Position numbers and translations under genes: made by a program
Shown here: piece after piece, positions 46,450 to 64,000 of the stretch
How positions within the stretch are numbered: position 1 is the first letter of the stretch
How the letters are laid out: every line of letters begins with the position of its first letter
Notes under the pieces: model-generated
What the model saw: only the letters and a program-made list of their open reading frames with translations
The model's database searches: none
Told to the model about the DNA's origin: nothing
IMG/VR virus record: IMGVR_UViG_3300025033_000013
Strand: one strand, 5' to 3'
From: an uncultured virus (IMG/VR IMGVR_UViG_3300025033_000013)
Taxonomy: Duplodnaviria > Heunggongvirae > Uroviricota > Caudoviricetes
Length of the DNA: 64,000 bases

Positions 46450-46798
46450 TATGAATTGGACATTTAAGAGTAAATTGGAAGATAATGAAGAAGCTAAAGA
46501 AACAATTGAAATTGTTAATAAGTTATTAGATAGAACTGATGTTGAAAGAATGATTTCACCTAAATCAGATGAATACTTTCTAATAGATAGGGTAAATGAA
46601 TACTGTATGGTTATTGGCCATGATAAAATAATATTGGCTAACCATAAATTTAGTACTACTGTGGAATTAGGTTTATCATTTACGGAAAAGGTTAAAAGTA
46701 TCGTAAGAGATAGACTTGAAGATGAACGACAAGCCTTAAAAGAAACCTTATTTGAGAATAAGATTGATTTACTTAAACGAATTAAAGATTCAATTTAA
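46450..46798 (+). CDS. hypothetical protein (rare plus-strand gene)
   Basis: Likely start at MNWTFK, with TATCTTTG promoter element at ~46418. Confidence 0.7.
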
Positions 46799-46812
46799 AT
46801 GTTGTATTTTTG

Positions 46813-46886
46813 TGCGGAATGTCGGATTCGAACCGACAGCTCAACCTTGGAAGGGTCACATGTTAGCCATTGGACACCAATCCCGC
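46813..46886 (-). tRNA. tRNA-Gly(TCC)
   Basis: Cloverleaf with anticodon loop CT-TCC-AA and T-loop TTCGAAT. Confidence 0.9.
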
Positions 46887-46989
46887 AAGTCGGTGTCTCA
46901 ACTACCTTTCACACCTAGCAGTTCACTAAGGAGTGTTGAGTCAGCTCTCAACAATATATTACTTATACAGTTGCTGGGGTTGTTTTACC

Positions 46990-47865
46990 TCATATTTCTT
47001 TCAACCAATTACCCTTATGAAGCAATTGGAATTTTAATTTACGTAAAGACTTATCTCTAATCAAAGCAATTCTTGCTTTGCTAAGTTCTAACATATTTGA
47101 TACTTCTTTGATACTTACTGGTTCTCTACCATCTAAGCCATATAATAATATTAATATGGTTTTCTCTTCATCATTTAACCTACTAAGTAATACTTCAGTT
47201 CTAATGTCAGAATCACCTAACTTAACTAAGTCATTTGAATCGAAATCATTTGAATCTTTTAACAAATCTAATAACGTTATAGAATCATCATCTTCTCCTA
47301 AAGGTGCGTCTAATGATTGTACCTTATTACTTAAATTATCAATAAAAAACTCTATTTCAGAATCACTAAACTCATTACCTAAATGGTCTACCAATTCATT
47401 GTAAGCTGGAGTTCTTTCTAACTTTTGCTCCAACAAGGTATATTCTTTTTTCATTTTAAATGATTTAATATATTTACCAAGTGGTGGTCTAACAATTTTA
47501 CTGTTTGCTTGTATGTGTGCTATTATTGTTTGTCTAATCCACCATACAGCATATGATATAAATTTAAAACCTCTTGATGGGTCAAACTTTTCTGACGCTT
47601 TAAGCAACCCTATATTACCCTCATTGATTAAATCTTCAAATTTAATCCCATATATTTGATATTGTTTTGCAACACTTATTACAAATCTTAGGTTATGTTT
47701 TACTAATAATTCTTTAGATTTTTCATCACCATCAAACGCTTTTACCGCAATTTCATACTCTTCTTCAGGTGTTAAAATCTTAATTGATTGAATGTCATTG
47801 AAGTACATTTGTAATGAAGGTGAACTTCTATCTGTTATCGATGGTGTTACCACTAATTCTCTCAT
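46990..47865 (-). CDS. RNA polymerase sigma-70 family factor (second paralogue)
   Basis: NLRFVISVAKQY and FDPSRGFKFISYAVWWIRQ motifs. Confidence 0.95.
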   Translation of the reverse strand: MRELVVTPSITDRSSPSLQMYFNDIQSIKILTPEEEYEIAVKAFDGDEKSKELLVKHNLRFVISVAKQYQIYGIKFEDLINEGNIGLLKASEKFDPSRGFKFISYAVWWIRQTIIAHIQANSKIVRPPLGKYIKSFKMKKEYTLLEQKLERTPAYNELVDHLGNEFSDSEIEFFIDNLSNKVQSLDAPLGEDDDSITLLDLLKDSNDFDSNDLVKLGDSDIRTEVLLSRLNDEEKTILILLYGLDGREPVSIKEVSNMLELSKARIALIRDKSLRKLKFQLLHKGNWLKEI

Positions 47866-47988
47866 ATCTTATTTTTAATTTACTACAAAGATACGAAATA
47901 TTAATGTAATAACCAAATCATACCTTATAATTTAACAACTTTGGTCACAATATCTTGTACCACAAGTTTCACAATCCAAATGGCTCGG

Positions 47989-48061
47989 AGCACCCACTCG
48001 TACACGATACGAGACCCTTGAAATACCAATCCAAAATTCTAACCACTTAAACTATGGGTGC
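47989..48061 (-). tRNA. tRNA-Thr(GGT)-like, non-canonical T-loop
   Basis: Perfect acceptor GCACCCA/TGGGTGC, anticodon loop TT-GGT-AT, T-loop ATCGTGT. Confidence 0.6.
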
Positions 48062-48170
48062 ATTCGGTAATTAACGGTAACGTTTTGTGATTTTCTATAA
48101 AATCAATCCATTGTAAACCAATTAATTACACTTTTTATACCACCTTAACGGTAACATCTGGTAATTTTTG

Positions 48171-48257
48171 TGACCCCGACAGGATTCGAACCTGTGACAT
48201 TTCCGTTAAAAGCGGAAAGCTCTAAGGATTTCTCCAAACCAACTGAGCTACGGGGCC
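48171..48257 (-). tRNA. tRNA-Lys(TTT) with enlarged D-loop
   Basis: CT-TTT-AA; the D-loop contains extra GGAGAAATCC. Confidence 0.85.
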
Positions 48258-48370
48258 ATTAACCTATTTTTTAAAGATGTTAGGTTAAAACATCTCCCTC
48301 TTTATCTTTATTTCATTTTGCGACCTAATCTTTTATATATAATATATCAAAAAGTACAAAAGTTCCAAAG

Positions 48371-48444
48371 TTACTCCACTAGGGCTCGAACCTAGACTCT
48401 TCTGGCTCAAAACCAGACGTGTTAACCAATTACACCATGGGGCA
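48371..48444 (-). tRNA. tRNA-Gln(TTG)
   Basis: TCTGG-TT-TTG-AG-CCAGA. Confidence 0.9.
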
Positions 48445-48594
48445 ATATTTACTAATATTCCATATCGTAATATGCGATATGTCACAATTCATAATGTATC
48501 TGACTTAAGGTAATTAATCTTATCACCAGATTGTAGCCTGACCTCTCCACGAAGCTGAAGCTAGACATCAATAATTGCTTTCTACATGTATAGT

Positions 48595-48673
48595 TGGGAA
48601 GGAGGGATTCGAACCCCCGAAGCCTAAGCACCTGATTTACAGTCAGGCCGTTTTGACCGCTTACCTACTTCCC
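48595..48673 (-). tRNA. tRNA-Tyr(GTA)
   Basis: CCTGA-CT-GTA-AA-TCAGG with long variable arm. Confidence 0.85.
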
Positions 48674-48818
48674 AATTTTAAAGAGGACGACACCAAAACC
48701 GCTAAGTTCAGGTTTGTTATAAACATACCCAATATGCCCTGTCATCTTACTTGTCACTTTAACTATACTCGCTATAACTGGCTCGATAGTCTACTCACCA
48801 AATAATATCCTCTTTTTG

Positions 48819-48897
48819 TGGGGCACCATGTCGGAATCGAACCGACCAGCCTTCTGGGTTACAAATCCAGTACCTTCTCCTATTCAGTCTATGGTGC
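48819..48897 (-). tRNA. tRNA-Thr(TGT)
   Basis: TT-TGT-AA loop; encoded CCA. Confidence 0.85.
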
Positions 48898-48987
48898 ATA
48901 TCATCCAGTGTTAAGTGCTTTATATGTTGGTATGCGATATAGGCAAATGATAATTTTGGTTCAGTTCAGACTATCAACTGAACTTTG

Positions 48988-49060
48988 TGACCCCCACGGG
49001 CTTCGAACCCGTAACCCTCTCCTTAAAAGGGAGATGCCCGTCCACTTGAGCTTCGAGGTC
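48988..49060 (-). tRNA. tRNA-Lys(TTT)
   Basis: TCTCC-CT-TTT-AA-GGAGA. Confidence 0.9.
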
Positions 49061-49236
49061 ATTATAAGAGACAAGACATTGTTAACCATGCTACCACGTA
49101 TTTCTTAGGTTCACTATTCTCTTATTTCATTTTACGACCTAATCTAAATCCTTCTGGAATCTAGACGATGCCCCAATAAATCTAATTTTATGCTAGGATA
49201 CGTTTCTCCTTCTATGAATTAGTAACAGTCTGGTCG

Positions 49237-49319
49237 TCGGGAAAGTCGGAATCGAACCGACCATACTGAAGCTTCCAAGGCCCCGTAGCCTTTTTTCATT
49301 CTACCTTGGTCATTTCCCG
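49237..49319 (-). tRNA. tRNA-Pro(TGG), atypical D-arm
   Basis: Acceptor CGGGAAA/TTTCCCG; CT-TGG-AA loop. Confidence 0.7.
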
Positions 49320-49388
49320 TTTTTTAATATATTCTTTTAATTTATACATAAGTAAAGATTTTGAACCAAAATCCAAAAAATTTTCATG

Positions 49389-49475
49389 TCTAAGGGGTGG
49401 GATTCGAACCCACGATGTTATTTCTAACTCTTGCACCCAAGGCAAGCGAGTCTAGCCATCTGCTCTAACCCCTAG
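49389..49475 (-). tRNA. tRNA-Pro(TGG) with long variable arm
   Basis: CTTGC-CT-TGG-GT-GCAAG; variable arm AGTTAGAAATAACATC. Confidence 0.8.
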
Positions 49476-49533
49476 ATAAAAATACAATATTTCAAAGAAC
49501 TCCAATTTTATAGATTTGGAAACTATTAAACGC

Positions 49534-49572
49534 AAAAAACCCAGTTGAAATTGTTTTATCAACTGGGTTTTT
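49534..49572 (-). terminator. intrinsic terminator (attenuator) upstream of tRNA operon 1
   Basis: AAAAACCCAGTTGA-loop-TCAACTGGG followed by TTTTTT on the minus strand. Confidence 0.85.
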
Positions 49573-49601
49573 ATATATTGTTTATATAACTATATTCTAC
49601 A

Positions 49602-49700
49602 TTAGAATTCTGTTATGTCACTACAACGTATACTCAGTTGACCTTGGGACTTCCCGCCCTTCGGTTGATACTGTTTCGTATATGTTGTATAATTTCTCAT
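49602..49700 (-). CDS. putative attenuator leader peptide MRNYTTYTKQYQPKGGKSQGQLSIRCSDITEF
   Basis: 32-aa ORF between promoter and terminator; it contains the anti-terminator segment TCAACTGAGT. Confidence 0.75.
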   Translation of the reverse strand: MRNYTTYTKQYQPKGGKSQGQLSIRCSDITEF

Positions 49701-49726
49701 TATTTCTTATTTTGGGATTTACCCTT

Positions 49727-49805
49727 GTTATTAATATATAGTGCAAATATAGTAAATGTTTTAATATAAAACAAGTTTTTTTGCAATTATTTTTAAATTA
49801 TTTTT
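49727..49805 (-). promoter_or_regulatory. Bacteroidota-type promoter block, duplicated at 62575-62652
   Basis: TATATTTG (-7) at 49744-49751, inside a ~75-nt block near-identical to the one before tRNA operon 2. Confidence 0.8.
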
Positions 49806-50043
49806 TAACTACTTGATTATCAGTCTTATATTTTTTTTATATAATTCATCAATTTCTAAATTTTCACTGATACGATATACTTCAGTATATAATAATTCAA
49901 CATTATATTTAGTTTTCGCCTTATAAGTTACTTGAACGACAATATCATTTTTATCAAAAGCATCCATTAAAGCTAACTCAGTTGGAATGTATGATAATTC
50001 ATTCTCACATTTATATTTAGTTCTAATCATCACTCTAGGGACT

Positions 50044-50160
50044 GTGAACTACCCATCCACACTTCGTGATGGATGGGCTTCAAGTTTCATTGACTTGCCC
50101 AACGACAACGCCTCCACTTGTTTTTGTTTATTGTCCGAAATGCGTCCCACATTCAGACAT
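50044..50160 (-). mobile_element. IS200/IS605 right-end remnant
   Basis: GTGAACTACCCATCCAC..GATGGATGGGCTTCAAGTTTCATTGAC, similar to the copy at 52543. Confidence 0.75.
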
Positions 50161-50277
50161 GAAAATTCTTTTCATTTGCTTTCCATGATTTTATGGAAGT
50201 GGCAACATTCACAATTGCATTTTCAGCTTGGTTACAGATACCAACTCAATGCTGGTCTGGCTACACTCCCCATTTAG

Positions 50278-50367
50278 TGGTACAAGATGGACTCAAACCA
50301 CCAACCTTGCCTACTTCAACCGTTTATCGGATGTTTCAACACGCTCTATCAATTGAGCTACTGCGCC
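50278..50367 (-). ncRNA. tRNA-like RNA with extended anticodon arm
   Basis: Acceptor, D and T arms are recognisable; ~34 nt replaces the 17-nt anticodon arm. Confidence 0.6.
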
Positions 50368-50431
50368 TTTCAAAATGAATATGTGTGGTAGGCAACTCAT
50401 ATCGTCATGTATTCACATATTCATTTTATAG

Positions 50432-50503
50432 TCGGAATGGTAGATTTGATACTACATTACCTTCCAGCAATAGGAAGTGTCTTCAAATTAGACGATATCT
50501 CCG
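50432..50503 (-). ncRNA. degenerate tRNA-like element
   Basis: GTCT/AGAC D-stem, CTTCC-TATTGCT-GGAAG arm, non-canonical T-loop. Confidence 0.45.
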
Positions 50504-50504
50504 T

Positions 50505-51330
50505 TAAAGGCTTGAGTGTTGGGCCCTTGTAATACCTTTTGCTTTCGGTTTCCCTATTTCACACACCTCATGTTTCCACTTGGTAGGCATCATTAAGACA
50601 GTCTTGGAGTGACTGCAAACTCTTTTACCACAGATTGATATAAACCAATTTCACTACCTAGCTCCCTTGCGAGGATGAGAAGGTGCGACCCTCCTACTAA
50701 CGATACCTAGTCTCCGTTTCAGCGTTACCCTTGTGAGGTTAATAACTGCCCACATATTTCAGTGGGATAACTTAATTTTGTATCCGTGACCGCTAGAACT
50801 TTTACTTATCTTTGCTTTTTTAACATAAAAGTGGTTGGGCTATCGCCCCACCTAATTGATTAGCGATGCTCTCTCTTACAGGATGTGTCTAGCAGTTGAC
50901 AAACGTGCTGGCTTTTGACCAGTTTAGTTTACGACACCCCGTTGCAGTGTTTTACCACCACATCATTTCTTCATTACTTAGATTTACAAATTAACTTAAC
51001 TTAATATAACGCTTGGTTTCCCAAGATTATAATGAAGCATCATTATTAAACATTCCATAACAAATCATGATGAAATCAGCCTATCCGCTTTTTACACGTT
51101 TCAACCGAAATCTACTAACCGCCTATTGATATTTCTATCTCAACTCCCCGAAGCTAGGGAGTGAACTCGTTAATCTCAGCCATTCAGCCATTGACCCTTG
51201 TTCGTAGTTAATATGCTTACACAGATTGTTGACCCGAAAGCCCTCAACGCAATGCCTTGTTTGGACATCACTTTATACCTATCACTAGGTTTATCTTTTC
51301 CCGAAGGAAGGAGCATAAGCACCCCATTAT
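50505..51330 (-). ncRNA. large (~820 nt) structured ncRNA, GOLLD/ROOL-like candidate
   Basis: ORF-free and GC-richer than its flanks, with many hairpins (e.g. CTTCGG loops), its own TATATTTG promoter (51367-51374), and tRNA-like genes next to it. The family assignment is not verified. Confidence 0.6.
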
Positions 51331-51817
51331 TTTCAATATTTTAATGAACGTATTTTAATTCTTGTGCAAATATACAACTTATTTTTTAATTAAACAAGTT
51401 TTTTGCGATTTTTTTTAAAAAAGTTTTAAGAGCCTCACTTAAAGTTGTTTTATAATGATTTCGCCTCATTATAACTTTCCTATTTTTACTCTGCAAATGT
51501 ACATAATATATATTTAAAAAACAAGTAAAATAACAAAAAATTTTAAACTTTTTTTAACTACTTGATTTTCAGCATTTAAAAAATAAAAAGGGCTTGAAGT
51601 TTCTCTCTTCGGCTGGTGAACCAGGTGATTTGGATAGCCCCTTTTAAAAATGATTGGTATCTATATTCGTTTAACATGATAGCTAAATCCCTATCTAGAT
51701 ACCAATTCATACGTTTGGTATCTACATGTGCAAGAAATTTATTTTCCATGGAAAACATTTTATGGTTCCCATATGGAAGTTTTTTAGAATTGTCATAGTT
51801 GTCATAATATTATTATT

Positions 51818-52396
51818 TTAAAGATTAATATACGCTTTTAAACCACCATAAACATTGAGTCTCCATTCCCAAGGTCTGTAAGAACCAGAGGGGTCATCAT
51901 ATTTGGCGGCCAAATCCCCTCGTTGCATTAATGTTGTTTTTAAATTAAGACTTAACCACTTGGTTAAGAATATAGCAAAATCATCAGTGATTTCAAGACT
52001 TATATAACTTAAGTTATCTTCAGGGAAATTTCTTATAATAACCCCAGCACCACCATAAATTGCGTTATCAAAATAACCTAAATTAAAAGGCAATTTATTA
52101 TTTCTAAAATTGTAACCCCCTTGAAGGCCATAACGAGTGAAATTGAATTCATATAAATCAGCATACTCAAAAGTCAAACCAATTACAAGACTACCAGTTC
52201 CATCATAATCACCTTCCATCATAAATTCAAATCTCACATCTGGAGTAAAAGGTTCATTACCATAATCATCTATAGTCATTGCTAACTTAATATCTTGATA
52301 AAGACTAAAAGATAGCCTAGGGTCTTCTCCAGCAACTTGCGCTGAAGATATACTAAATGTTAATAAAACGATTATATATAGTAATACTTTTTTCAT
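51818..52396 (-). CDS. signal-peptide protein, possible outer-membrane beta-barrel
   Basis: MKKVLL..SSAQ signal peptide, alternating beta-strand pattern, C-terminal YGGLKAYINL. Confidence 0.55.
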   Translation of the reverse strand: MKKVLLYIIVLLTFSISSAQVAGEDPRLSFSLYQDIKLAMTIDDYGNEPFTPDVRFEFMMEGDYDGTGSLVIGLTFEYADLYEFNFTRYGLQGGYNFRNNKLPFNLGYFDNAIYGGAGVIIRNFPEDNLSYISLEITDDFAIFLTKWLSLNLKTTLMQRGDLAAKYDDPSGSYRPWEWRLNVYGGLKAYINL

Positions 52397-52542
52397 AATG
52401 ATTGGTTTTAATTGTGTAATTATACATAATTAAAACAAAAAAAACAAATTTATTTATAAAAATTCAATAGCTAATGTTAGGGTTGGCGTCCAATCACCGC
52501 TATAATCATCATCTACATCATAATAATGTGTGTAACCTACAT

Positions 52543-52755
52543 GTGAACTACCCACCCACGCCAGAGCCGATGGGTTGGGCTTCAAGTTTCATTGACTCGA
52601 CCAATGTCAACGCCTCCACTTGTTTTTGTTTATACTCCGATTGCATCCCAAAACCAGAGTTAATACAAATATACGACTTTATTTTTAAAAGTCAAATCTT
52701 TTTGTTGCTTACAACCCATTCACGCTAAAGCGATGAATGGGTTTTACGCTCCTTT
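52543..52755 (-). mobile_element. IS200/IS605-derived MITE
   Basis: Same ends and length as the copies at 24768 and 44088. Confidence 0.9.
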
Positions 52756-52921
52756 ATAAATTACTTGTTGGGCTTAAAGCTTGTCTAAAACTAATTGGTA
52801 CACCAAGGCCATTAACTTGCCGAATAATCCTTTTGATTTTGTCATTTTAAAATTTTTAATGTTATTGATGTCGCAACGATATGAATAATATTTTAAACTA
52901 CCAAATATTTTTTAACTTTTT

Positions 52922-54277
52922 TTAATAACCTAGTTTTTTACTACTTTTTTTAAGTTTACTATCGATGGTAGCACTCTTTAATTTATTTTCTAACGTCGTA
53001 TTCTTTTTACTGATTTCAGCTATAATTTTAGCTAAGTCTAACGGAGTTTCTAAAATTTCAGATTTATTTTTAAAATCTTGAATTGCTTCATAAATAAATG
53101 CGCCAGTAAACCCTTCTGATTTAAAGAAATTAACCAACATTTCATCAGTTAATATTTTTATATCCTCTTCACTTACTGAATTATATTTTTTATCTAAATT
53201 TTCTAATGATTTAATAATTATCGACTTAACATTTTCATTTGTCAATTCATCAAAGAATAATAATTTATGGAAACGGCCTGGCCTCTGTGCGGCTAAATCA
53301 ATTAAATGTGGCGCATTTGTACTTGCAATAACACCTACATTATCAGGTAATTTGTCAACACCATCTAATATATCTAAGAAAGCACCTAATAATGGGCTAT
53401 ATGAACCATGATTCCTATCACCTAGATATAAATCAATATCATCTAATATCAACACACAAGGTGCTAAAATTTTAGCCAATTCAAATTTGTCTTTAATGAT
53501 TTTACAGATATTTGTTTTAATGATTGTAACATTTTGATTATTCAAAAGTTTACTAATCGCCCTAGTTGACTCGGTTTTACCCGTTCCTGGCGCACCACTA
53601 AACATGTATCTAGGTAGCACCCCTTTCTTCTCGAATAACTTAATGTACATATTTAAATCATCCATCAAATCTTCAGGTAAGAATACATTATCAAAAGATA
53701 ATTCTTTAAGGTCACGTATTTTCCACTCTAAAAACTCATCAGCGATTGTTAAATAACTACCTTTTAAGTTGGAACTATCAACAGCTAATTTAAATAACTT
53801 ATCATATACTACATGAGATTTAATATCATCATCATCTAAGCTACTTAATCTAACTAAATTTCTAACTTGACCACCTTCTCTAAACGCTAATAAAACAAAA
53901 GTCATATTATTACCATTAATACTAATTAAAACAGTATATTCAAACACCACAGGTGGATAATCAGGTAAATAATCAATATAGTTATTATCTATATTTAAGA
54001 TACCTTTAAATTTAACACCTTCATAAGATTCGACTCCTTCATTAGTTCGTTTATGACTTAACAGATTAAAGAAGTTAAAAAATATCGCCATGATTGGTTT
54101 ATTTACTTCATCATAAAAACTAACCTTCGATTTATAATTATTTCTTGAAGTGACCTCTTCATCATAATAAAAATCTTCACCCATATCTATAGCAGTTGCT
54201 TCGTTGACCTCTTCATCCCAACCTTCGAAATCTTTATTTGACGTTATTTTTCTACTCATCATTAATTGTTTTATCAT
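52922..54277 (-). CDS. AAA+ ATPase
   Basis: Walker A GAPGTGKT, Walker B LILDDID, STN and RPGRF motifs. Confidence 0.9.
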   Translation of the reverse strand: MIKQLMMSRKITSNKDFEGWDEEVNEATAIDMGEDFYYDEEVTSRNNYKSKVSFYDEVNKPIMAIFFNFFNLLSHKRTNEGVESYEGVKFKGILNIDNNYIDYLPDYPPVVFEYTVLISINGNNMTFVLLAFREGGQVRNLVRLSSLDDDDIKSHVVYDKLFKLAVDSSNLKGSYLTIADEFLEWKIRDLKELSFDNVFLPEDLMDDLNMYIKLFEKKGVLPRYMFSGAPGTGKTESTRAISKLLNNQNVTIIKTNICKIIKDKFELAKILAPCVLILDDIDLYLGDRNHGSYSPLLGAFLDILDGVDKLPDNVGVIASTNAPHLIDLAAQRPGRFHKLLFFDELTNENVKSIIIKSLENLDKKYNSVSEEDIKILTDEMLVNFFKSEGFTGAFIYEAIQDFKNKSEILETPLDLAKIIAEISKKNTTLENKLKSATIDSKLKKSSKKLGY

Positions 54278-54487
54278 TTAACCCCTTAGCGAACACTAAT
54301 GCTTCATCATGGTTGTTAAATTGTTTACTATCTATTTGTTTTCCCTTACTGTTAGTTACAATAAAATAACCATTTTTGTTATCAAATTTAAACCTAACCT
54401 TAAAATTTAACCCAGCACAAGATTTGCTAGGCTTACTCAATTTAATTTTTTTGTTCGCCATCGTTTCTTTTTATTTAAGCAAATATA

Positions 54488-54952
54488 CTATTTTAATTGT
54501 TTACTAACAAATAATTTTGTTATTTTTTTTAAAAACTTTTTTTGAGACTCATGTAATAACCTTTCTGCGAAGTCTAACGTCTCCCATATAGTAATATCGT
54601 TCTCAGGTAATTGCATGCCCGTATAGGTGCATTCAAACATGCTAACGCATGTCAAGTCTAAATTCAATTCAGACAGCGGGAAATCGACTAAAAACAAGTG
54701 ACCTTGTATCTTTTTATTCTTACTAGAATATGATTCTATTCCTAAATCTTTATAAAATGTAATATTCTCATAAAGTTTCAAATCTAAATTAGTTTCTTCT
54801 AAAGCTTCTCTGATTGCAGCTTCTTTTGAAGTTTCACCTTCTTCGTATAATCCTTTAGGTACTGACCATACAGCTAATGTATGACCCATTGCATGAGTAA
54901 CCAATATCTTCCCTAAACTATCTATTATAAACGCACCATTTGTTATCTCCAT
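54488..54952 (-). CDS. NUDIX hydrolase
   Basis: PKGLYEEGETSKEAAIREALEETNL Nudix box. Confidence 0.9.
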   Translation of the reverse strand: MEITNGAFIIDSLGKILVTHAMGHTLAVWSVPKGLYEEGETSKEAAIREALEETNLDLKLYENITFYKDLGIESYSSKNKKIQGHLFLVDFPLSELNLDLTCVSMFECTYTGMQLPENDITIWETLDFAERLLHESQKKFLKKITKLFVSKQLK

Positions 54953-54953
54953 A

Positions 54954-55406
54954 TTATTGTTTCCACCAAGGTATATCTTCTTCTTTTATTGGTTGTTCGT
55001 ATTTGTATATTCTAACCTTTAAATTCATTTTTTTTGCTAAATCTATCATGTGGGCTGTGCCTTTAGATGATTTATCCCAGAAAGCAATCAACGCATCAGC
55101 ATATTCAGCCATTTCTTTATTACGCACCATTCCAGCGATTTTCCAATAAGGTTTGCCTGATTTATCACACCCAATTTGACTTTCTGGTTTATCTTCAACA
55201 CTGTCCCAATTTGCTGGAAATTCTTTTATTGGATAACCCATAAATCTAGCAAATTGTTCACCTAATTTATCAGCCCCATTTGCTTTACCAGAAACCACTT
55301 CAACATTTTGTTTATTTTGAAGTATGTGCATACAGAATTCAGATAACGTTCTAAAATCATCGAAGTCCCTACCACCAGCAATTATAACTCTAAATTTATC
55401 TTCCAT
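54954..55406 (-). CDS. YspA-like SLOG (DUF2493) protein
   Basis: IIAGGRDF, SGKANGAD, AG.VRNKEM and FWDKSSKGTAHMI motifs. Confidence 0.85.
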   Translation of the reverse strand: MEDKFRVIIAGGRDFDDFRTLSEFCMHILQNKQNVEVVSGKANGADKLGEQFARFMGYPIKEFPANWDSVEDKPESQIGCDKSGKPYWKIAGMVRNKEMAEYADALIAFWDKSSKGTAHMIDLAKKMNLKVRIYKYEQPIKEEDIPWWKQ

Positions 55407-55587
55407 TATTTTAATAATGTTATACGAAAAGAAAGCAAGTCTAAATATTTAGACTTGCCCATTCTTTCCGAAAATTTACCATAAAAGTTTTTATGGTTTT
55501 TATTTCTAAAAGCTAACCCTTTACCCCATATTCGAAACCAGAATATGCCATTACCTGTATAGATATATAACGGCCCTATTCTCATAT

Positions 55588-56256
55588 TTATTTATATTCA
55601 GTATATATCCATAACACACCATTCTCATCTTTAATTGGCTCATTCATAGGCCAATCACATGGTACGTCTACTTTAATTTTATTACTTATTCCAGTATCAT
55701 TATCACTTAATGTAATTCCAGTTTCAACTGTTGCATTGGCATTTAATACTAGATTTATTGAACTCGCAACAGTACCTTCAACTATCAATTTGGCACCAAC
55801 TGGAGTGTTATAAGCTTTATCTTCTTGATAGCTTTCAAATATTAACGTACCGCTTCCATTTATATCACCTTTAATTATACAATTTACTGACCTCATATGA
55901 AGTTCTTTACCTTCAGGTATTGTAATTGAACTTTGGAATCCAATCCATGGGCCTACAGAATAAGTTTGGTCTATGTCATTTTTAATCATCCCCGAAAAAT
56001 ATCTCCCACTAAGGTTATTAATATCAATATTTCTACTTTCCCAATCCATCCAAACTGGTGTTTCTTTTGTACTAGGAATGAATCCTTCAGCTGTATATGC
56101 TTTACTGGATGAAGATTTAAGTGTCATTCCAGCTGTTACTTTTTGTTTATAAACTGTTTTAGTACAGTTATCTGGTTGACATTTGGTTACCATGAAGCCT
56201 ATTTGCGCTATTAACAATATGACTCCGATTGCATAAATAATGTTTTTGTTTTTCAT
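55588..56256 (-). CDS. hypothetical membrane-anchored/secreted protein
   Basis: 222 aa with an N-terminal hydrophobic segment. Confidence 0.6.
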   Translation of the reverse strand: MKNKNIIYAIGVILLIAQIGFMVTKCQPDNCTKTVYKQKVTAGMTLKSSSSKAYTAEGFIPSTKETPVWMDWESRNIDINNLSGRYFSGMIKNDIDQTYSVGPWIGFQSSITIPEGKELHMRSVNCIIKGDINGSGTLIFESYQEDKAYNTPVGAKLIVEGTVASSINLVLNANATVETGITLSDNDTGISNKIKVDVPCDWPMNEPIKDENGVLWIYTEYK

Positions 56257-56503
56257 AATTTGTTATTTTTAATATTTAAGCAATGATACAAAAAAAAATT
56301 TACATAAACAAATTATTTATATAAATTTTCTAACTTTTTAAAGATTAAATGCAAATATTCCCGATAATACGCACTTTGCTTATATTCATCAGTAAGCCAT
56401 TTATCGTTAAATTTTAACTCTTCTATTAAAGATTCGCTATCCATTTATTTCATTAATAATTGATATTTATCAAAATTTACCATATAACCATCATGTGGAA
56501 AAC

Positions 56504-57676
56504 GTGAACTACCCACCCACGGCAGAGCCGATGGGATGGGCTTCATGAGTCAGCACTCTCACTAATGTGGGCAGTTCATCATGATTTTTAAGAGTGTGTT
56601 CCCCACTCAAAATATTTTTTAATGCAAATAATTTAATATTTATGGCAGCGTTTACATCTCTATCAAGAACAGAATTACACTTTTGGCAAGTCCAAGACCT
56701 ATCTTTTAGTGTCAGTTCTTTATTTATGTATCCACAACAGTTGCAAGTCTTGGATGATGGTGCAAAACGTCCTATACGTAGAATGTTTTTACCATACCAT
56801 TCAGCCTTGTATTCCAACATAGTTACAAAAGTTGACCAGCTTACATCATTTATTGCTTGTGCTAAATTGTGGTTTTTGACCATATTACTTACTGCCAAAT
56901 CCTCTAAACAAATTGTTTGGTTCTCACGAATTAATTTAGTGGATGTTTTATGCAGAAAATCTTTACGTTTGTTTACTACTTTTTCGTGTAGTAAGGCAAG
57001 ACGGTGTTTAGTGTGTTTACCTTTGTTTTTTGAATATTTACGTTGTACATATTTTAGTTTACTTTGTGCTTTTCGTAAGTTCTTTGGATTTTCAAATACT
57101 TCACCATCAGATGTAATTGCAAAATCTTTAATACCCAAGTCAATGTTGTGTTTTCTTTAATAGGTGCTTTAATAGGCATTTCAGTATTAGTATCAACCAA
57201 TACTGAAACAAAATATTTACCTGTTGGGGTAACACTTATGGTAGCACTTTTAATTGTTCCTTTAATTTCTCTATGCAAAACTATATTAATTCCTTCTTTG
57301 AATTTAGGAATAATCAAAAGGTCATTTTCAACTATTACGTTTTGTGGAATTGAAAAAGATTGTTTTCCTTTATGTTTAGATTTGAATTTTGGAAAACCTG
57401 CACCTTTAAAGAATTTCTTAAATGCAATATCCATATTTTGTATAGATTGTTGTAATGATTGGCTGTTGACTTCTTTTAACCACTCACATTCTTTTTTAAG
57501 TTCTGGTAGTTGTTTGATTAAGTCAAAAGGAGAAAAATTATGTTTAGAACCTAAATACGCTGTATTTTTGTTTCTAATGCAAGGTTATACACAAAACGAC
57601 TACTACCAATATGTTTGGCAATCAACTCTTTTTGTGAGTTTGTTGGGTATAATCTATATTTAAATCCTTTAAGCAT
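56504..57676 (-). pseudogene. tnpB: frameshifted tnpB with IS right end
   Basis: Fragments MLKGFKYRLYP..., FFKGAGFPKFKSK and GIKDFAITSDG...DRDVNAA lie in different frames; GTGAACTACCC end at 56504. Confidence 0.85.
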
Positions 57677-57776
57677 ATATTATTAAATAGTCTAAACTTT
57701 TGCAAAAATACAATATTATTTTGACAAAACCAAATATTTGTTTAAATTCACAAAATGTAAGCGACAAATGTAGTAA

Positions 57777-58181
57777 TTAACCTTGACTTAAAATATATTG
57801 ACGAATAGTATCTGGACTTGCTTCACCAATAGAGCAAACGAAATACCCTGCTGACCAAAACATACTTTTGTACCAATACTCCCTACGAAGCAATGTTGAA
57901 TGTAATTGCCAAATATGATATGTAGATTGTTGTTTTAACCTACGTACAATTTGAGATATAGACAAACGAGGTATGTACCTAATTAAGAAATGTATGTGGT
58001 CTATATCACTTTGAAATACCTCTACATTAAAATCTGAATTATCTATGATGTTGTTGAATATTACATACATATCTTCTTTAAGTTGATTAACTAATAATGG
58101 TTTACGATATTTTGTAACCAATATAATATGTGCTTTAAGATAATGTTTTGAATGGTTTGTAGAAATGTAATTTGATTGCAT
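57777..58181 (-). CDS. tnpA: IS200/IS605 Y1 transposase (second copy)
   Basis: Nearly identical to 27907..28311. Confidence 0.95.
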   Translation of the reverse strand: MQSNYISTNHSKHYLKAHIILVTKYRKPLLVNQLKEDMYVIFNNIIDNSDFNVEVFQSDIDHIHFLIRYIPRLSISQIVRRLKQQSTYHIWQLHSTLLRREYWYKSMFWSAGYFVCSIGEASPDTIRQYILSQG

Positions 58182-58327
58182 AATGTAGTATTTTGTTTAA
58201 ATTATTTACAACCAAAGACGGAATGATTTAAACAAAATACGGTATGAAATAAATTAATTTTAACCAAAGTTTGTGATTTAGATAAAAATATTGTACTTTT
58301 ACAAAAGTTTAGACTATTTAATAATAT

Positions 58328-59446
58328 ATGCTTAAAGGATACAAATACAGAATATTTCCAACAGATGACCAAAAAGACCAACTACAAAGGTATTTTGGTG
58401 TAAATAGACTTGTCTATAATTTGGGGTTGGAAACCAAGACTGTTGCGTATGCCTCAAATAAAAAATCAATATCTAAATATGATTTAATAAAACAACTTCC
58501 AGAATTGAGAAAAGAATTTGACTACATTAAAGAATGTCCAAGTCAAGTATTACAACATAGCATAATCAATTTAGATACAGCATATCAAAACTTTTTTAAG
58601 GGTAAAGGTCAATTTCCTAAATTTAAAAATAAGTATTCCAAACAGTCAATTACGTTTCCACAAGGATTTGAAATATCGTTTAAAGAGGGAATACTAAAGC
58701 TACCTAAATTAAAAGAAGTTGCTATTGATTACCACAGAGAATTTAAAGGTTTACCTAAAAGAGTTACATTAACTAAAACAGTAACTGGTAAATATTTTGT
58801 TTCAATATTGGTTGATACTCAAACCGAAAAACCAAAGAAAAAATCAATTAAAACTGAAACATCTGTTGGTATTGATTTTGGAATTAAAGATTTAGCTATT
58901 ACTTCTGATGGTGTAGTATATGAAAATAAAAACTTCTTTAAATCACAACAAAGAAGATTAAGAGTTGAACAAAGAAGCCTTGCAAGAAAACAGAAAGACT
59001 CAATAAATAGAGAAAAACAAAAATTAAAAGTAGCATTACTGCAAGAAAAAATTCGTAACCAAAGGACTGATTACTTGCACAAAATATCTACTGAATTAGT
59101 TAAATCTTATAATACAATTGTATTGGAAGATTTGTCTGTTAGTAATATGGTTAAGAACCATAATTTAGCTAAAGCAATATCTGATATGGGTTGGCGACAA
59201 TTAAGAACAATGCTTGAATATAAGACTGAATGGCAAGGTAAAAATCTTGTTGTAATTGGAAGGTTTGAACCAAGCAGTAAAGTATGTTCTAACTGTGGAA
59301 ACCACAAGAAAGATTTAAAACTTTTAGATAGAACTTATGATTGTGATAAGTGCGGTAATTCAATTGATAGAGATGTAAACGCTGCATATAACATAAAGAA
59401 TTTCGGGGTTAGGGACAACCCTTTGTACGCTAACGTGAGCCATTAG
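58328..59446 (+). CDS. tnpB: RNA-guided endonuclease TnpB
   Basis: GIDFG, LEDL, DRDVNAA and CxxC motifs; right end GTGGGTAGTTCAC ends at 59499. Confidence 0.95.
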   Translation: MLKGYKYRIFPTDDQKDQLQRYFGVNRLVYNLGLETKTVAYASNKKSISKYDLIKQLPELRKEFDYIKECPSQVLQHSIINLDTAYQNFFKGKGQFPKFKNKYSKQSITFPQGFEISFKEGILKLPKLKEVAIDYHREFKGLPKRVTLTKTVTGKYFVSILVDTQTEKPKKKSIKTETSVGIDFGIKDLAITSDGVVYENKNFFKSQQRRLRVEQRSLARKQKDSINREKQKLKVALLQEKIRNQRTDYLHKISTELVKSYNTIVLEDLSVSNMVKNHNLAKAISDMGWRQLRTMLEYKTEWQGKNLVVIGRFEPSSKVCSNCGNHKKDLKLLDRTYDCDKCGNSIDRDVNAAYNIKNFGVRDNPLYANVSH

Positions 59447-59582
59447 GCTGTGCGTTGTGCAGGAAGCCCACACATCTTTTTAGTGTGTGGGTAGTTCACC
59501 GTGGGTAGTTTCGTATAATTTTCGATAATCCTTACTCATAAATATAATATAATAAATTATATTCATAAGTAAAGAATGTTTG

Positions 59583-59620
59583 TGGAGACAAAGGAAATCG
59601 AATCCTTCTCTCGGACATTG
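59583..59620 (-). pseudogene. 3' half of split tRNA (Ala-type acceptor)
   Basis: CAA-TGTCC-GAGAG-AAGGA-TTCGATT-TCCTT-TGTCTCC-A; pairs with the 5' half at 60368-60403. Confidence 0.75.
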
Positions 59621-59693
59621 TGGACACGCTGGGATTCGAACCCAATCTTCCTCATTGCAAATGAAGAGCATTTGCCATTTATGCTAACGGCCC
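59621..59693 (-). tRNA. tRNA-Ala(TGC)
   Basis: CTTCA-TT-TGC-AA-TGAGG; G3:U70 pair; slightly irregular acceptor stem. Confidence 0.8.
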
Positions 59694-60320
59694 ATATTTA
59701 TTATCCCATTTATTAACTTTTTTTATTAAATCTTCTAGATTAATACTACTTTTACCATCTTTTTTATTATTTTCACCATGCCTCATTAATTTACAATTGG
59801 CTGGGTGACTAATATAATACGGGTCAACACCATTTTTAAATCCTTCACTAATTGAGTACATATGGTCTCTACTTATCCCATTTGGATTGTCACCCATATT
59901 TTTAGCTTTATACCAGCCATACTCTTCAATCAACCAAAAATCAAATTTATCTGGGTATGAATTAAGACTAAATTTAAATTTACAAGCTTTACGGTATTCA
60001 ATTTTATCACTCCTATCAAATGAATCTAACCATAGTTCCCTTTTAAGCTTTTTAGTTTTTAAGGCCTTGTTAATAACATCTTTAGTATGTAATTTACTCC
60101 AATTAATGTTACCAACTTTTGCTTGGGCTTTTGCTGATATTGAGAGATTCTTTCTTCTTTCAGGGTCACGATTGGCCAATAAAACTTTTTCAGATTTTTT
60201 AGCGATTTCAGATTTTTTACTTTTATCTTCTTTGGACCAAGTTCTACTATTAGCACAAGACCTAGAACAAAACTTACCCTTTTTATGGTGGTTATTACCA
60301 CACTTTGGACATTCTTTCAT
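59679..60320 (-). CDS. HNH-type homing endonuclease
   Basis: Likely start at MKECPKC; KFCSRSCAN zinc motif; RDHMYS...HPANC....H.ENNKK. Confidence 0.75.
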   Translation of the reverse strand: MKECPKCGNNHHKKGKFCSRSCANSRTWSKEDKSKKSEIAKKSEKVLLANRDPERRKNLSISAKAQAKVGNINWSKLHTKDVINKALKTKKLKRELWLDSFDRSDKIEYRKACKFKFSLNSYPDKFDFWLIEEYGWYKAKNMGDNPNGISRDHMYSISEGFKNGVDPYYISHPANCKLMRHGENNKKDGKSSINLEDLIKKVNKWDNKYGPLA

Positions 60321-60367
60321 ATTAATAAATATCACAAAATAATCGAAACGACCACATAAGTTTAGGT

Positions 60368-60403
60368 AAATGTCCAACGCCTTGCCTTGGTACATGTGCC
60401 CCC
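60368..60403 (-). pseudogene. 5' half of split tRNA (Ala-type acceptor)
   Basis: GGGGGCA...GGACA-TTT; acceptor pairs with TGTCTCC and anticodon stem GGACA pairs with TGTCC. Confidence 0.75.
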
Positions 60404-60410
60404 CATATTG

Positions 60411-60484
60411 CGGTTTTCGGAGGGCTCGAACCTCCATCTCTGTACTGACACGCACAGTATCTTTTGCCATTTAGACGATAAACC
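60411..60484 (-). tRNA. tRNA-Asp(GTC)-like with 8-nt anticodon loop
   Basis: CTGTG-CGTGTCAG-TACAG; discriminator G. Confidence 0.6.
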
Positions 60485-60496
60485 ATATTAATTTTT

Positions 60497-60562
60497 TGGA
60501 AACAATGGGACTCGAACCCATATCTTACCAATAGCTATCCTAACCAGTTAGACGATACCCCC
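60497..60562 (-). ncRNA. tRNA-like element with truncated anticodon arm (G3:U70 acceptor)
   Basis: D and T arms intact; anticodon arm reduced to about GCTATTGGT. Confidence 0.55.
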
Positions 60563-60594
60563 AAGGAAATTAATAACCTTAGTTTGCAAACTTG

Positions 60595-60666
60595 TAGCCC
60601 ATGAGAGAGTCGAACTCTCGTTTACAGGTCGAAAACCTGTCGTCCTAACCATTAGACGAATGGGCC
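60595..60666 (-). tRNA. tRNA-Glu(TTC)
   Basis: ACAGG-TT-TTC-GA-CCTGT. Confidence 0.9.
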
Positions 60667-60758
60667 ATATTTGGGTAGAATCAATGTGCACATTGTCTAC
60701 CGAGACTAGTTTCATTACCTAAGACTTCATAGATAAGAGGATTAACTATCACAATTTG

Positions 60759-60800
60759 TGGTCGGAGTTGGAATCGAACCAACGACACATGGTTCTTCAA
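60759..60800 (-). pseudogene. 3' half of split tRNA-Phe(GAA)
   Basis: TT-GAA-GA-ACCAT-GTGTC-GTTGG-TTCGATT-CCAAC-TCCGACC-A; 5' remnant GGTCGGGTAGAGCA at 61460-61473. Confidence 0.75.
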
Positions 60801-60816
60801 TAACTTTTTGGTATAG

Positions 60817-60889
60817 TGGCTTGAACTGGAATCGAACCAGTGACATATGGATTTTCAGTCCACTACTCTACCAACTGAGTTACCAAGCC
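60817..60889 (-). tRNA. tRNA-Phe(GAA)
   Basis: Canonical cloverleaf, CT-GAA-AA. Confidence 0.92.
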
Positions 60890-61381
60890 TTATAGAAAGG
60901 TTTTACCTTTATACTCTAAATTTATTTTTTCTAAAATCCCATAAGTGCTATGTTCTAATCTGTGACACAGTGCACATAATAATTCACACTTATCCAATTC
61001 TTCTTTACCCCTTTCCCAAGATTTATTAGCCAAGTTTAAACCACTTGGATTAAAATCTTTTTGATTTGGGTCTTTATGATGAAAATCAAATCCTGATACA
61101 TCACCCTCCCAACCACATCTTTTACATTCACCACCTAGATATTCAACAGCTAATTTCTTGACTCTATATCTCCTTAGATTAGTGTTACACGTACCACATA
61201 ACTTCTTTTTAGATGTCTTACCACACACTAGACAATTATTAGGTTTATTTTTATGTAATGTTATATTAAACTTATCTAAAGTTCTATAAACTGTTTTCCT
61301 ACCTATTTTTAATTCTTTTGATATAACTGTGGCTGTTTCACCAGCGTTATACATTTCTATAATCTTTTCGTCTCTACTCAT
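60890..61381 (-). CDS. HNH-type homing endonuclease with N-terminal HTH
   Basis: Likely start at MSRDEK; YLGGECKRCG, FDFHHKDP and CELLCALCHRLEH motifs. Confidence 0.85.
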   Translation of the reverse strand: MSRDEKIIEMYNAGETATVISKELKIGRKTVYRTLDKFNITLHKNKPNNCLVCGKTSKKKLCGTCNTNLRRYRVKKLAVEYLGGECKRCGWEGDVSGFDFHHKDPNQKDFNPSGLNLANKSWERGKEELDKCELLCALCHRLEHSTYGILEKINLEYKGKTFL

Positions 61382-61484
61382 ATTAATAAATATGAAGTTT
61401 TTATTAAAAGACACATTTTTTAAAAAATAAATTCTACCAAAATGTCAAATAACTTATTATGCTCTACCCGACCATTATTATTTG

Positions 61485-61558
61485 TACTGCCGACCAGATT
61501 CGAACTGGCGTCTGCAAGGTTGAAAGCCTTGTGTACTTGACCGCTATACTACGGCAGC
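61485..61558 (-). tRNA. tRNA-Glu(TTC)
   Basis: CAAGG-CT-TTC-AA-CCTTG. Confidence 0.9.
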
Positions 61559-61565
61559 AAATTTG

Positions 61566-61636
61566 TGGGAACTAAGAGAGTCGAACTCTTACCTTATGGG
61601 CTTCAACCATACGAACTACCATTATTCGAAGTCCCC
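61566..61636 (-). tRNA. tRNA-Phe(GAA)
   Basis: TATGG-TT-GAA-GC-CCATA; acceptor GGGGACT/AGTTCCC. Confidence 0.8.
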
Positions 61637-61697
61637 TTATGAACCATTTAAAAACCTCCCCGACAAGGGTTAAAACAATGATTCTTTGTTTTATTTT

Positions 61698-61787
61698 TGG
61701 CAACTACAACGGGAGTCGAACCCGCTACATGGATAAACCAAACCTGAGTGACAGTCAGGTACACCAACCGTTATGCGCTGGTACTGT
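61698..61787 (-). tRNA. tRNA-Asp(GTC) with long variable arm, weak acceptor stem
   Basis: CCTGA-CT-GTC-AC-TCAGG; encoded G-CCA. Confidence 0.6.
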
Positions 61788-62300
61788 TTGAGGGTTACAT
61801 TAACCCTCTTAATTGTTCTTTCAACTCCTGAATCTTTCTTTGTTGAAGTGGTACATTAATTTCCACAGTATTAGAGGTTTTTTTAGTTAAAGATAAAGTT
61901 AATTCATCTTCTAACATTTTGATTCTCTCAATTAATCTATTTCTCTTTTTATCAATCTTACCCATAACCATTTTCTTTTTTCCATTGGTTATGCAACCAA
62001 TTTACGTGTTCATACGCTGAACCTTTACCTTCATGAATATCATTGAATCCATTCTCTTTAGTGATTACAGATTCTTTAGGTGTTACTGAACCTCTATATT
62101 TAGTTCCATAATTACCAGTGAATTTTTTAGTTACTGGGTCGAAATCTCCCCATTTACTATAACCATCACCTATCCATTCAATATAATACTTTTTTCCTGT
62201 TTCTGGATAGAACATTATCTCTCTTCCAGTTTCATCTCGATTAAGTAGGAAATTCTTAATCACTTCTTTATTTATCCCATGATAATCAAATTTAATTTTG

Positions 62301-62373
62301 CGGATGTCACGGGGGTCGAACCCGCAATCGCTTGAGTGACAGTCAAGCATGTTACCTACAACACCTCACATCC
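62301..62373 (-). tRNA. tRNA-Asp(GTC)
   Basis: CTTGA-CT-GTC-AC-TCAAG. Confidence 0.9.
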
Positions 62374-62382
62374 GTTTATAAC

Positions 62383-62416
62383 AAAAAAAAATCTCATCCG
62401 ATTTGGATGAGATTTT
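62383..62416 (-). terminator. intrinsic terminator (attenuator) upstream of tRNA operon 2
   Basis: AAAATCTCATCC-aaatc-GGATGAGA followed by a T9 tract on the minus strand. Confidence 0.85.
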
Positions 62417-62447
62417 GTCTTATTGTTTTTATTATTTTTTAAATAAC

Positions 62448-62543
62448 TTAACTTTCATTTTTGACAATTCTCATCCTACCCAAGCTAAAATCTGCCTCGG
62501 CTGCGAAAAATTCGTTTTCAAATATGTTAATTAAGTTTCTCAT
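62448..62543 (-). CDS. putative attenuator leader peptide MRNLINIFENEFFAAEADFSLGRMRIVKNES
   Basis: 31-aa ORF between promoter and terminator; it contains the anti-terminator segment GGATGAGA. Confidence 0.75.
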   Translation of the reverse strand: MRNLINIFENEFFAAEADFSLGRMRIVKNES

Positions 62544-62574
62544 TACTTTTATTTTGTGGTACTTTATTAATACC

Positions 62575-62652
62575 GTTATTAATATATAGTGCAAATATAG
62601 TAAATGTTTCAATATAAAACAAATTTTTTTGCAATTATTTTTAAATTATTTT
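62575..62652 (-). promoter_or_regulatory. Bacteroidota-type promoter block (copy of 49727-49805)
   Basis: TATATTTG at 62592-62599. Confidence 0.8.
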
Positions 62653-62691
62653 TAAATTATTTGATTTTCAATTAATTAAAACCTTGATTTT

Positions 62692-63141
62692 TTAAATTAA
62701 TTTCAGAACTTTACCTAATTCAATGCTAAGTATTTCAGAATCATCAAATGCCACATAAGAAAAACCTTTTTCTTTAACCCTATCCATCATAACACTACCA
62801 GTGTCATATGGTACACCTAAAGCGTGACATAACTCTCTATATAGCCTTGCTTTTAATATTAATCTATCTAAACGAACTTTGGGGTCCAATAAGATTAATT
62901 TGTTATTCAAATCAATTTCAGATAAACCTTCAATTTGCTTATCCTCTTTTGCTATTAGTATATAACTAACTTTACTTAATAATTGTTCTTGAATATCGTA
63001 GCCATTTTGGGCGGCTTCGTCAACGAATTCCTCAAGATATTGAACAATAAGTGAATCGTTCATAATTACTGACCCATTGGTTTGTCCAAAACTAAAGGTT
63101 AATGTCAACATTAATAATACAAGTAGGGCTGTTTTTTTCAT
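62692..63141 (-). CDS. secreted hypothetical protein, degenerate zincin-like motif
   Basis: Signal peptide; RELCHALG in place of HExxH. Confidence 0.5.
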   Translation of the reverse strand: MKKTALLVLLMLTLTFSFGQTNGSVIMNDSLIVQYLEEFVDEAAQNGYDIQEQLLSKVSYILIAKEDKQIEGLSEIDLNNKLILLDPKVRLDRLILKARLYRELCHALGVPYDTGSVMMDRVKEKGFSYVAFDDSEILSIELGKVLKLI

Positions 63142-63943
63142 GTTTTTCTAATTTTAATTCGGCTAATTTATGAATTCTTTTTTAGATAGCCTAATTTTTT
63201 CCATTTTTTTTTCAAAATGCTTATTCTATTTATACCTATTTCGTTGATATGATTGTTTTCATCGACATAATCAGGGTATTGTTCAGCATAAAACTTTTTA
63301 ACATCTTGAGATTTGTTGATTAAAATTTCAGCATTCTCAATCATTTTATTCAAAGCATTTAATTTATCTAATAATTCTTCATCATAAGTTTTTAACAACT
63401 CCTTCCTTAGATTTTCTCTAATTGGGTAGATATTTTTTAATGCTTCAACTAATTCTTCGTTTAAATTTTCATTTAGATTCATATAAATAATTTTACCATC
63501 TCTTGTTCTAAAATTGATAACCTATGTCTTAAATGATTAAGTTTATTATCGTATTCTTCGGATGTTGTGTTAATACCAGCATTTGCTGATTGTAATTTTG
63601 ATATCTCCCTTTGGATAACATCACTTTCTCTTGTTAAGCTTTCAAATCTTTCAGCTTTTTCTGTTTGTGTCATAATATTAATTATTTTATATACCTAATA
63701 TATTCAATAAATAGTATTAATCAATAGTTTAGCTAAAATAATTGTTATTATTTTAGCTACAAAACTTATTCGACTAAATACCAGTATTATAGATTATGTA
63801 TTATTTTATGAATATCTCTAGGGGATACCAATGTGCATTATTTGGTAATTTCTTCAATACGTTTTTTTGGTATATCATAGTGATTCTTATGGAATCAACA
63901 TCGTTTGATGTTTAAATCTTTGGCCATTGCGTGTAGATTTTCA

Positions 63944-63990
63944 GTGAACTACCCATTAGCTAAAGACCAATGGGTTTTACGCTCCAAAAT
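63944..63990 (-). mobile_element. 47-bp IS200/IS605 mini element (both ends fused on one hairpin)
   Basis: GTGAACTACCCATTAGCTAAAGACCAATGGGTTTTACGCTCC next to a TTTAT target. Confidence 0.75.
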
Positions 63991-64000
63991 ATAAATATGT

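Follow-up and report, generated by a model that had tools for sequence, protein, structure and literature searches.

The window analysed here is a 64,000-nt stretch from an uncultured virus of the Caudoviricetes (IMG/VR record IMGVR_UViG_3300025033_000013), corresponding to the minus strand of bases 29028-93027 in a 93,027-bp virus contig of roughly 31% G+C. Nearly all genes lie on the minus strand of the window, and ARAGORN with default settings called 22 tRNA genes in the contig, mostly in three clusters. Our subject is unit 2, in which a short leader open reading frame (ORF) and a hairpin separate a promoter block from a cluster of tRNA genes. The same phage carries unit 1 (49535-49822, minus strand) and unit 3 (G000:C1 27300-29020, outside the window, past window position 64000).

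All parts of unit 2 lie on the minus strand, at the positions where the original prediction had placed a promoter block, a 31-aa leader and a terminator. The block (62575-62670), whose promoter activity is predicted, is a 96-nt direct repeat, 94% identical to the unit 1 block at 49727-49822; it had been described as a copy of the operon 1 block of ~75 nt and proved longer. It also aligns with its counterparts in unit 3 and at window position 51367. The block contains a Bacteroidetes-type -7 box (62592-62599); the promoters of the contig look like the Bacteroidota type, judged by matches to the consensus of that type. The first ATG 3' of the block opens a leader ORF of 31 codons plus stop (62543-62448). 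The 5' context of this ATG, read from the sequence, is A-rich, and Shine-Dalgarno sites are little used in the host group. Downstream of the ORF is an intrinsic terminator (62383-62416), with a hairpin at 62416-62388 (12 pairs, loop of 5) and a T-run to 62383. This terminator was among five sites called by a terminator scan, against 1.7 expected in shuffles. The first tRNA gene begins 10 nt past the T-run, and a -7 box scan found no box between the two, so this tRNA is expected to be made only via read-through.

The tRNA genes of unit 2 are likewise on the minus strand. ARAGORN default calls are Asp, Asp, Phe, Glu, Phe and Glu: a first tRNA-Asp (GTC) at 62300-62373 (Rfam, 47.8 bits), a long-form tRNA-Asp (GTC) at 61698-61788 (Rfam, 28.1 bits, just below threshold), a tRNA-Phe (GAA) at 61565-61636, a tRNA-Glu (TTC) at 61484-61558, and second copies of the Phe and Glu genes at 60816-60889 and 60594-60666, these last four being found by Rfam as well. 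Two tRNA-like stretches with defective anticodon arms follow at 60497-60562 and 60411-60484 (Rfam, 35.3 and 22.8 bits); relaxed ARAGORN leaves their anticodon undefined, and their isotype is not assignable. The last member of the cluster is a tRNA-Ala (TGC)-like gene (59620-59694; Rfam, 37.7 bits; ARAGORN with relaxed settings only), which has TGC in its anticodon loop and three non-standard acceptor pairs. ARAGORN and Rfam agree that the identifiable tRNAs are Asp, Phe, Glu and Ala only, as originally claimed.

The leader is rich in codons for these same amino acids. Its best 12-codon window, codons 8-19 (62487-62522), contains 4 Phe, 3 Glu, 3 Ala, 1 Asp and 1 Asn codon when counted by hand, so that both the count and the window score bear out the predicted 11 of 12 residues. 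We scored such matches as the best 12-codon window against the tRNA set from relaxed ARAGORN, and compared them with a null set of all first-ATG ORFs of 20-45 codons on both strands of the contig (538 ORFs, 537 of them others). None of the 537 other short ORFs equalled the unit 2 leader, and the combined frequency of Asp, Phe, Glu and Ala in the long ORFs of the phage is only 0.223. The unit 1 leader scored 12/12 for its own set (0/537 null ORFs), and that of unit 3 scored 10/12 (1/537). When the three leaders were matched to all three tRNA sets, the scores (of 12) were strongly diagonal, at 12/3/2, 2/11/2 and 4/1/10, in agreement with the earlier statement that the amino-acid sets of the leaders do not overlap. 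Every isotype encoded in a unit of this phage is also present in the leader of that unit (15/15). By eye, the order of the leader codons shows no general match to that of the tRNA genes.

Unit 3 and the remaining block copies allowed us to follow up the expectation that further blocks would precede leaders matched to other isotypes. This held for unit 3, which consists of the common promoter block, a 27-codon ORF with a 10/12 Leu/Val/Cys window, a terminator, and tRNAs called by ARAGORN as Cys, Val, Leu, Val, Leu and Leu, so that the third tRNA cluster, too, has a matching leader. It did not hold for the fourth copy of the block (51367-51460), which has no matched leader or tRNA set.

A second feature of the leader is its relation to the terminator. 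An 8-nt word occurs twice, in the leader (62476-62469) and in the terminator 3' arm (62399-62392), which had suggested that the leader could pair with the terminator 5' arm. RNAduplex supports this: the strand at 62477-62462, covering leader codons 23-28, is the best upstream partner of the 5' arm (62420-62405), at -17.3 kcal/mol, a value equalled by 0 of 500 shuffles. This candidate antiterminator competes with a terminator hairpin of -19.1 kcal/mol, and the RNA from leader to terminator has a fold z-score of -6.12. In unit 3 the terminator 3' arm is likewise echoed in the ORF (-14.0 kcal/mol, equalled by 1 of 500 shuffles).

Taken together, these features make it likely that unit 2 is a trp-type, ribosome-mediated (leader-peptide) transcription attenuator that gates the phage tRNA cluster and is multivalent, responding to several amino acids at once. 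The attenuation reading offered in the original prediction thus gains support, on sequence grounds, from the matched isotypes, from the third unit and from three further phages described below. From the same sequences we infer that the block acts as a promoter, that the leader is translated, that transcription and translation are coupled, and in which direction the switch works. Transcription would begin at the common Bacteroidetes-type promoter block, and the 31-codon leader would be translated as RNA polymerase advances. A shortage of charged tRNA for any of Phe, Glu, Ala and Asp would stall the ribosome in codons 8-19 and leave the segment of codons 23-28 free to pair with the terminator 5' arm once this is made. 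The terminator would then be blocked, and polymerase would continue into the Asp, Phe, Glu and Ala tRNA genes. With ample tRNAs, the ribosome would reach the stop codon, 12 nt past the segment, the terminator would form and transcription would end at about 62383-62390. Without a ribosome, the segment would be held by the region of the regulatory codons, and the terminator would form too. The outcome would be an on-demand tRNA supply with product feedback, in which each of the three units senses its own, non-overlapping set of codons.

Folding calculations were consistent with several of these steps. In constrained folds without a ribosome, the antiterminator strand is base-paired to the regulatory run, and the terminator hairpin is present. 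When the run is masked as if by a ribosome, RNA transcribed as far as the terminator loop adopts the antiterminator in each of the three units of this phage. The first of these folds could also be read with the logic inverted. Since the strand is sequestered and the terminator forms when no ribosome is present, some translation is needed for read-through, and efficient translation of the leader might open the hairpin between run and strand and so provide positive feedback or timing. The unit 1 stop codon lies 27 nt past the strand, where a terminating ribosome would leave the strand uncovered. In most units, however, the stop codon is 6-17 nt past the strand, close enough for a terminating ribosome to cover it; stalling in the run would free the strand; and positive feedback would require the phage tRNAs to be present before their own synthesis. 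We regard inverted logic as very improbable.

The position of the hairpin, only 10 nt from the first tRNA, also raises the question of whether it is a transcription switch at all. It might instead be a processing or stability element, defining the 5' end of a tRNA precursor or stabilising a distinct leader RNA that acts in trans; trans-acting attenuator RNAs are described in the literature. A G+C-rich stem with a tail of eight or nine T is, however, the signature of an intrinsic terminator, and a processing element would account for neither the codon match nor the competing pairing. This explanation has, in our judgement, hardly any likelihood.

Units of the same kind were found in other flavobacterial phages. 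A pattern search with the promoter core led to Cellulophaga phage phi38:1, although the pattern itself proved too common: it gave 121 matches at 119 loci, of which only 5 had downstream tRNAs, four of these being the same phage. In total we identified seven more units, three in phi38:1, two in Cellulophaga phage phi4:1 and two in Maribacter phage Panino. The tRNAs of phi38:1 form three sub-clusters, each headed by a repeated promoter, an ORF of 25-29 codons and a terminator. The best windows are 10/12 in the unit for Lys, Ile, Gly, Met, Asp, Thr, Val and Arg, 12/12 in the unit for Tyr, Ser, Asn, Phe, Cys and Trp (the Tyr, Cys and Trp tRNAs being called only with relaxed ARAGORN), and 12/12 in the unit for Pro, Glu, Gln, His, Leu and Arg.

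These units share with those of our phage the -7 box, a leader matched to its tRNAs (21-29 codons in these phages), an echo of the terminator arm in the leader, the terminator and a tRNA sub-cluster. They differ in having no similarity to it in leader or hairpin sequence and a much shorter 5' untranslated region. The tRNA groups also differ, being Pro/Glu/Gln/His/Leu/Arg, Ala/Lys/Ile/Gly/Met/Asp/Thr/Val/Arg and Tyr/Ser/Asn/Phe/Cys/Trp. Given the lack of common leader or hairpin sequence and the different grouping, the codon match must have tracked the tRNA content independently. Over all units, each of the 10 leaders scores best on its own tRNA set within its own phage. Of 69 isotypes counted by unit, 63 have codons in the corresponding leader; the leader of Panino unit B lacks Met, and that of phi4:1 unit B lacks the five distal isotypes Ser, Asn, Trp, Phe and Met. 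In 9/10 units, all except phi4:1 unit B, the terminator 5' arm finds its best partner inside the leader, just past the run. In the Cellulophaga and Maribacter phages the ATG is only 4-5 nt past the -7 box, so these leader mRNAs are probably leaderless.

The comparison bears on two further explanations. An ORF with competing hairpins would respond to any stall, and the leaders might therefore be general sensors of translation capacity that report only working ribosomes (host shut-off, ribosome-targeting stress), with codon choice incidental. Such a sensor needs no codon match, however, and the three leaders of this phage have non-overlapping sets that each equal their own tRNA set, as do those of the three other phages; we consider a general sensor improbable. 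The short ORFs might also encode small proteins with functions of their own, the hairpin being a leaky terminator or insulator and the tRNAs arising by constitutive read-through. In GenBank, some leader ORFs of the other phages are indeed recorded as hypothetical proteins, with upstream starts, and none is marked as a leader; the unit 3 leader is hydrophobic, contains Cys and resembles a lipoprotein signal peptide. The peptides are alike only in their first 2-3 residues, yet each follows its tRNA set, and the terminator arm is echoed within the ORF in 9/10 units; the unit 3 peptide may itself be such a signal peptide, but this would leave the cross-unit pattern unexplained. Small proteins of this kind are exceedingly improbable in our view.

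Several observations weigh against the attenuator interpretation of unit 2. The Ala gene is missed by ARAGORN default, and two ORFs precede it at its position 2.7 kb downstream. With the default ARAGORN set, which lacks Ala, the leader reaches at most 6/10 in any 10-codon window, a score that 12 of the 537 null ORFs equal, so the statistical strength of unit 2 taken alone depends on accepting this gene. Over its whole length the leader has only 12 of 30 post-Met residues in the tRNA set, and it contains three Asn codons, for which the unit has no tRNA. A -7-box-like word at 62287-62294, 3' of the first tRNA, means that the distal tRNAs may have a promoter of their own. The full-length RNA with a stalled ribosome still has the terminator as its minimum-energy fold; antitermination would therefore need to be kinetic, and a kinetic choice between folds is also typical of classical attenuators. 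A ribosome masked at the stop codon leaves an 8-bp antiterminator in the nascent fold of unit 2; the same model is clean for unit 1. In phi4:1 unit B, where the five distal isotypes are unmatched, the antiterminator is no better than in shuffles (208/500). Finally, transcription-translation coupling in Bacteroidota is assumed, and the copies of unit 2 that we retrieved were identical or differed by 1 base in 6036, so that its hairpins gain no support from covariation.

Diverged homologues of unit 2 were sought with the flanking protein, with the sigma factor and with a pattern allowing all synonymous runs, and these searches gave only identical copies. The GenBank phages gave no DNA match to unit 2, and protein searches with the sigma factor and the methyltransferase found only distant relatives among them. 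A search for sequencing runs returned one metatranscriptome run, containing 0.08 of the query words. For unit 3, a metagenomic relative (L148) is 92.8% identical over 1618 nt and covers this unit only. Between the unit's ATG and its T-run, a span of 150 nt, this relative shows one substitution and one extra T in the run, compared with about 11 differences expected at the average rate by simple arithmetic. The substitution, a synonymous one, replaces a G-U pair in the antiterminator by G-C, improving the pairing. In a Calle-type relative of phi38:1, all three leader regions are 96-99% identical.

The closest known systems are the class I leader-peptide attenuators, represented by the trp, his, phe, leu, thr and ilv leaders of Proteobacteria. 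Like these, unit 2 has a short ORF with a run of regulatory codons and, ahead of the first gene, an intrinsic terminator. Both share three rival pairings, namely of the run with the antiterminator strand, of the antiterminator and of the terminator. Its ORF lies between the block and the tRNA at 62373, and the run at codons 8-19 supplies the regulatory codons, with a weaker match if Ala is left out. The mutually exclusive pairing uses a strand within the ORF, a layout found in 9/10 units, and the hairpin comes after the ORF and before the tRNAs. The principle of leader-peptide attenuation is set out in PMC1183508. The thr and ilv leaders are also multivalent and mix codons of several amino acids. 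Class I attenuators, however, regulate enzyme genes, whereas the phage units would regulate tRNA genes, whose product itself would relieve the stall, and up to nine isotypes would be sensed per phage leader.

Two other systems are related in different ways. The pheST attenuator of Escherichia coli has a leader with Phe codons before the genes for phenylalanyl-tRNA synthetase. It resembles the phage units, as we read them, in being a case of leader-peptide attenuation of a component of the translation apparatus, but its target is a synthetase, it senses a single amino acid and it is bacterial. T-box riboswitches regulate synthetase and amino-acid genes and bind uncharged tRNA directly, with no ribosome or ORF. 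As the phage units would, they sense the state of a particular tRNA and flip between terminator and antiterminator. Rfam searches over window 46000-64000 at E up to 1 matched neither a T-box nor any other family except tRNA. A full-text literature search, with subscription journals and supplements outside its scope, found no case in which a leader peptide controls tRNA genes and no paper on the units of the Cellulophaga and Maribacter phages; the phi38:1 transcriptome paper (PMC5335546) shows no such control in its passages on tRNAs. The class of mechanism is known; the tRNA target, the multivalent matching and the modular use are, as far as our literature search showed, new.

The surroundings of the three units show further features. 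In unit 1 (promoter block 49727-49822, leader 49700-49602, terminator 49572-49535), a sigma-70 family gene with regions 1.2, 2, 3 and 4 (46990-47865, minus strand) lies between the Thr and Gly tRNAs and has its own -7-box-like word upstream. By eye, a second Lys(TTT) is a better reading of the Glu gene that ARAGORN called at 48170-48249, and a second Pro(TGG) is a better one of 49219-49300. In the clusters at 59583-62373 and 46812-49475 (minus strand), most isotypes are present in duplicate, one copy being oddly built, with a long variable arm, an enlarged D loop or an aberrant anticodon loop. Orphan tRNA 3' fragments are present at 60758-60800 and 59583-59620. Within the unit 2 cluster is an HNH endonuclease gene with a helix-turn-helix domain (60890-61381, minus strand; Pfam HNH and HTH_7), and its location among duplicate and fragmentary tRNAs suggests remodelling by homing endonucleases. 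At the end of this cluster, on the opposite strand, is a TnpB gene (IS605 OrfB, Cas12f-like; 58328-59446, plus strand). G+C-rich elements of ~50-100 nt, 90% identical, recur at several places, including 50071-50138, 52543-52640 and 56504-56552, and may be ends or guide-RNA parts of TnpB-type elements.

The fourth, more diverged block copy (51367-51460, minus strand) precedes ~950 nt that are poor in ORFs and contain several short hairpins resembling tetraloops, followed by a tRNA-like gene at 50278-50367 (Rfam, 34.6 bits; the whole region spans 50278-51460, minus strand). This stretch matched no Rfam family and no GenBank phage, and it folds with a z-score of only -1.18; a large non-coding RNA next to the tRNA clusters is one possibility. 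Three further -7 boxes at window 16343, 18130 and 22022 (plus strand) lie on the strand opposite to that of most genes, are followed by a common extended word and may drive antisense or small RNAs.

In phi38:1 and Panino, a conserved gene for a small membrane-type protein of ~48 aa, with its own promoter, lies directly before the Ala/Lys/Ile/Gly leader (L120 5740-5925; L122 4757-4906). We rejected phi4:1 gp076 as a third leader before Ser, Trp and Phe, since on visual inspection it lacks a -7 box and a terminator and overlaps a tRNA-like stretch. Units 1-3 are present and identical in metagenome contigs of 112, 162 and 315 kb (L132, L136-L139, L142-L146 and L154), which reach well past both ends of the 93-kb contig. 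The latter is probably a fragment of, or embedded in, a much larger (jumbo) phage genome, and further tRNA units may exist beyond its ends.

Phage tRNA genes are usually seen as a fixed supplement to codon usage or as a counter to tRNA-cleaving defences, and little is known of how their expression is controlled. If the attenuation reading is true, the sensed codons correspond to the supplied tRNAs, giving a self-correcting, isotype-resolved supply loop. A more specific role is conceivable, although we think it rather unlikely: the leaders could be sentinels for loss of host tRNAs during infection, through anticodon nucleases, other tRNA-depleting defences or shut-off by the phage, with each unit switching on the missing isotypes and the odd second copies being variants that escape the nucleases. 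Phages would then carry a modular, isotype-resolved sensor of the charged-tRNA pool that is tied to counter-defence. The design recurs in four unrelated flavobacterial phage lineages with different tRNA groupings, and the idea is directly testable, since two of the phages, phi38:1 and phi4:1, can be studied as cultured model systems on Cellulophaga baltica. For annotation, short ORFs before phage tRNA clusters, now recorded as hypothetical or missed, may be regulatory leaders, and the codon content of such a leader would predict which tRNAs form one transcription unit.

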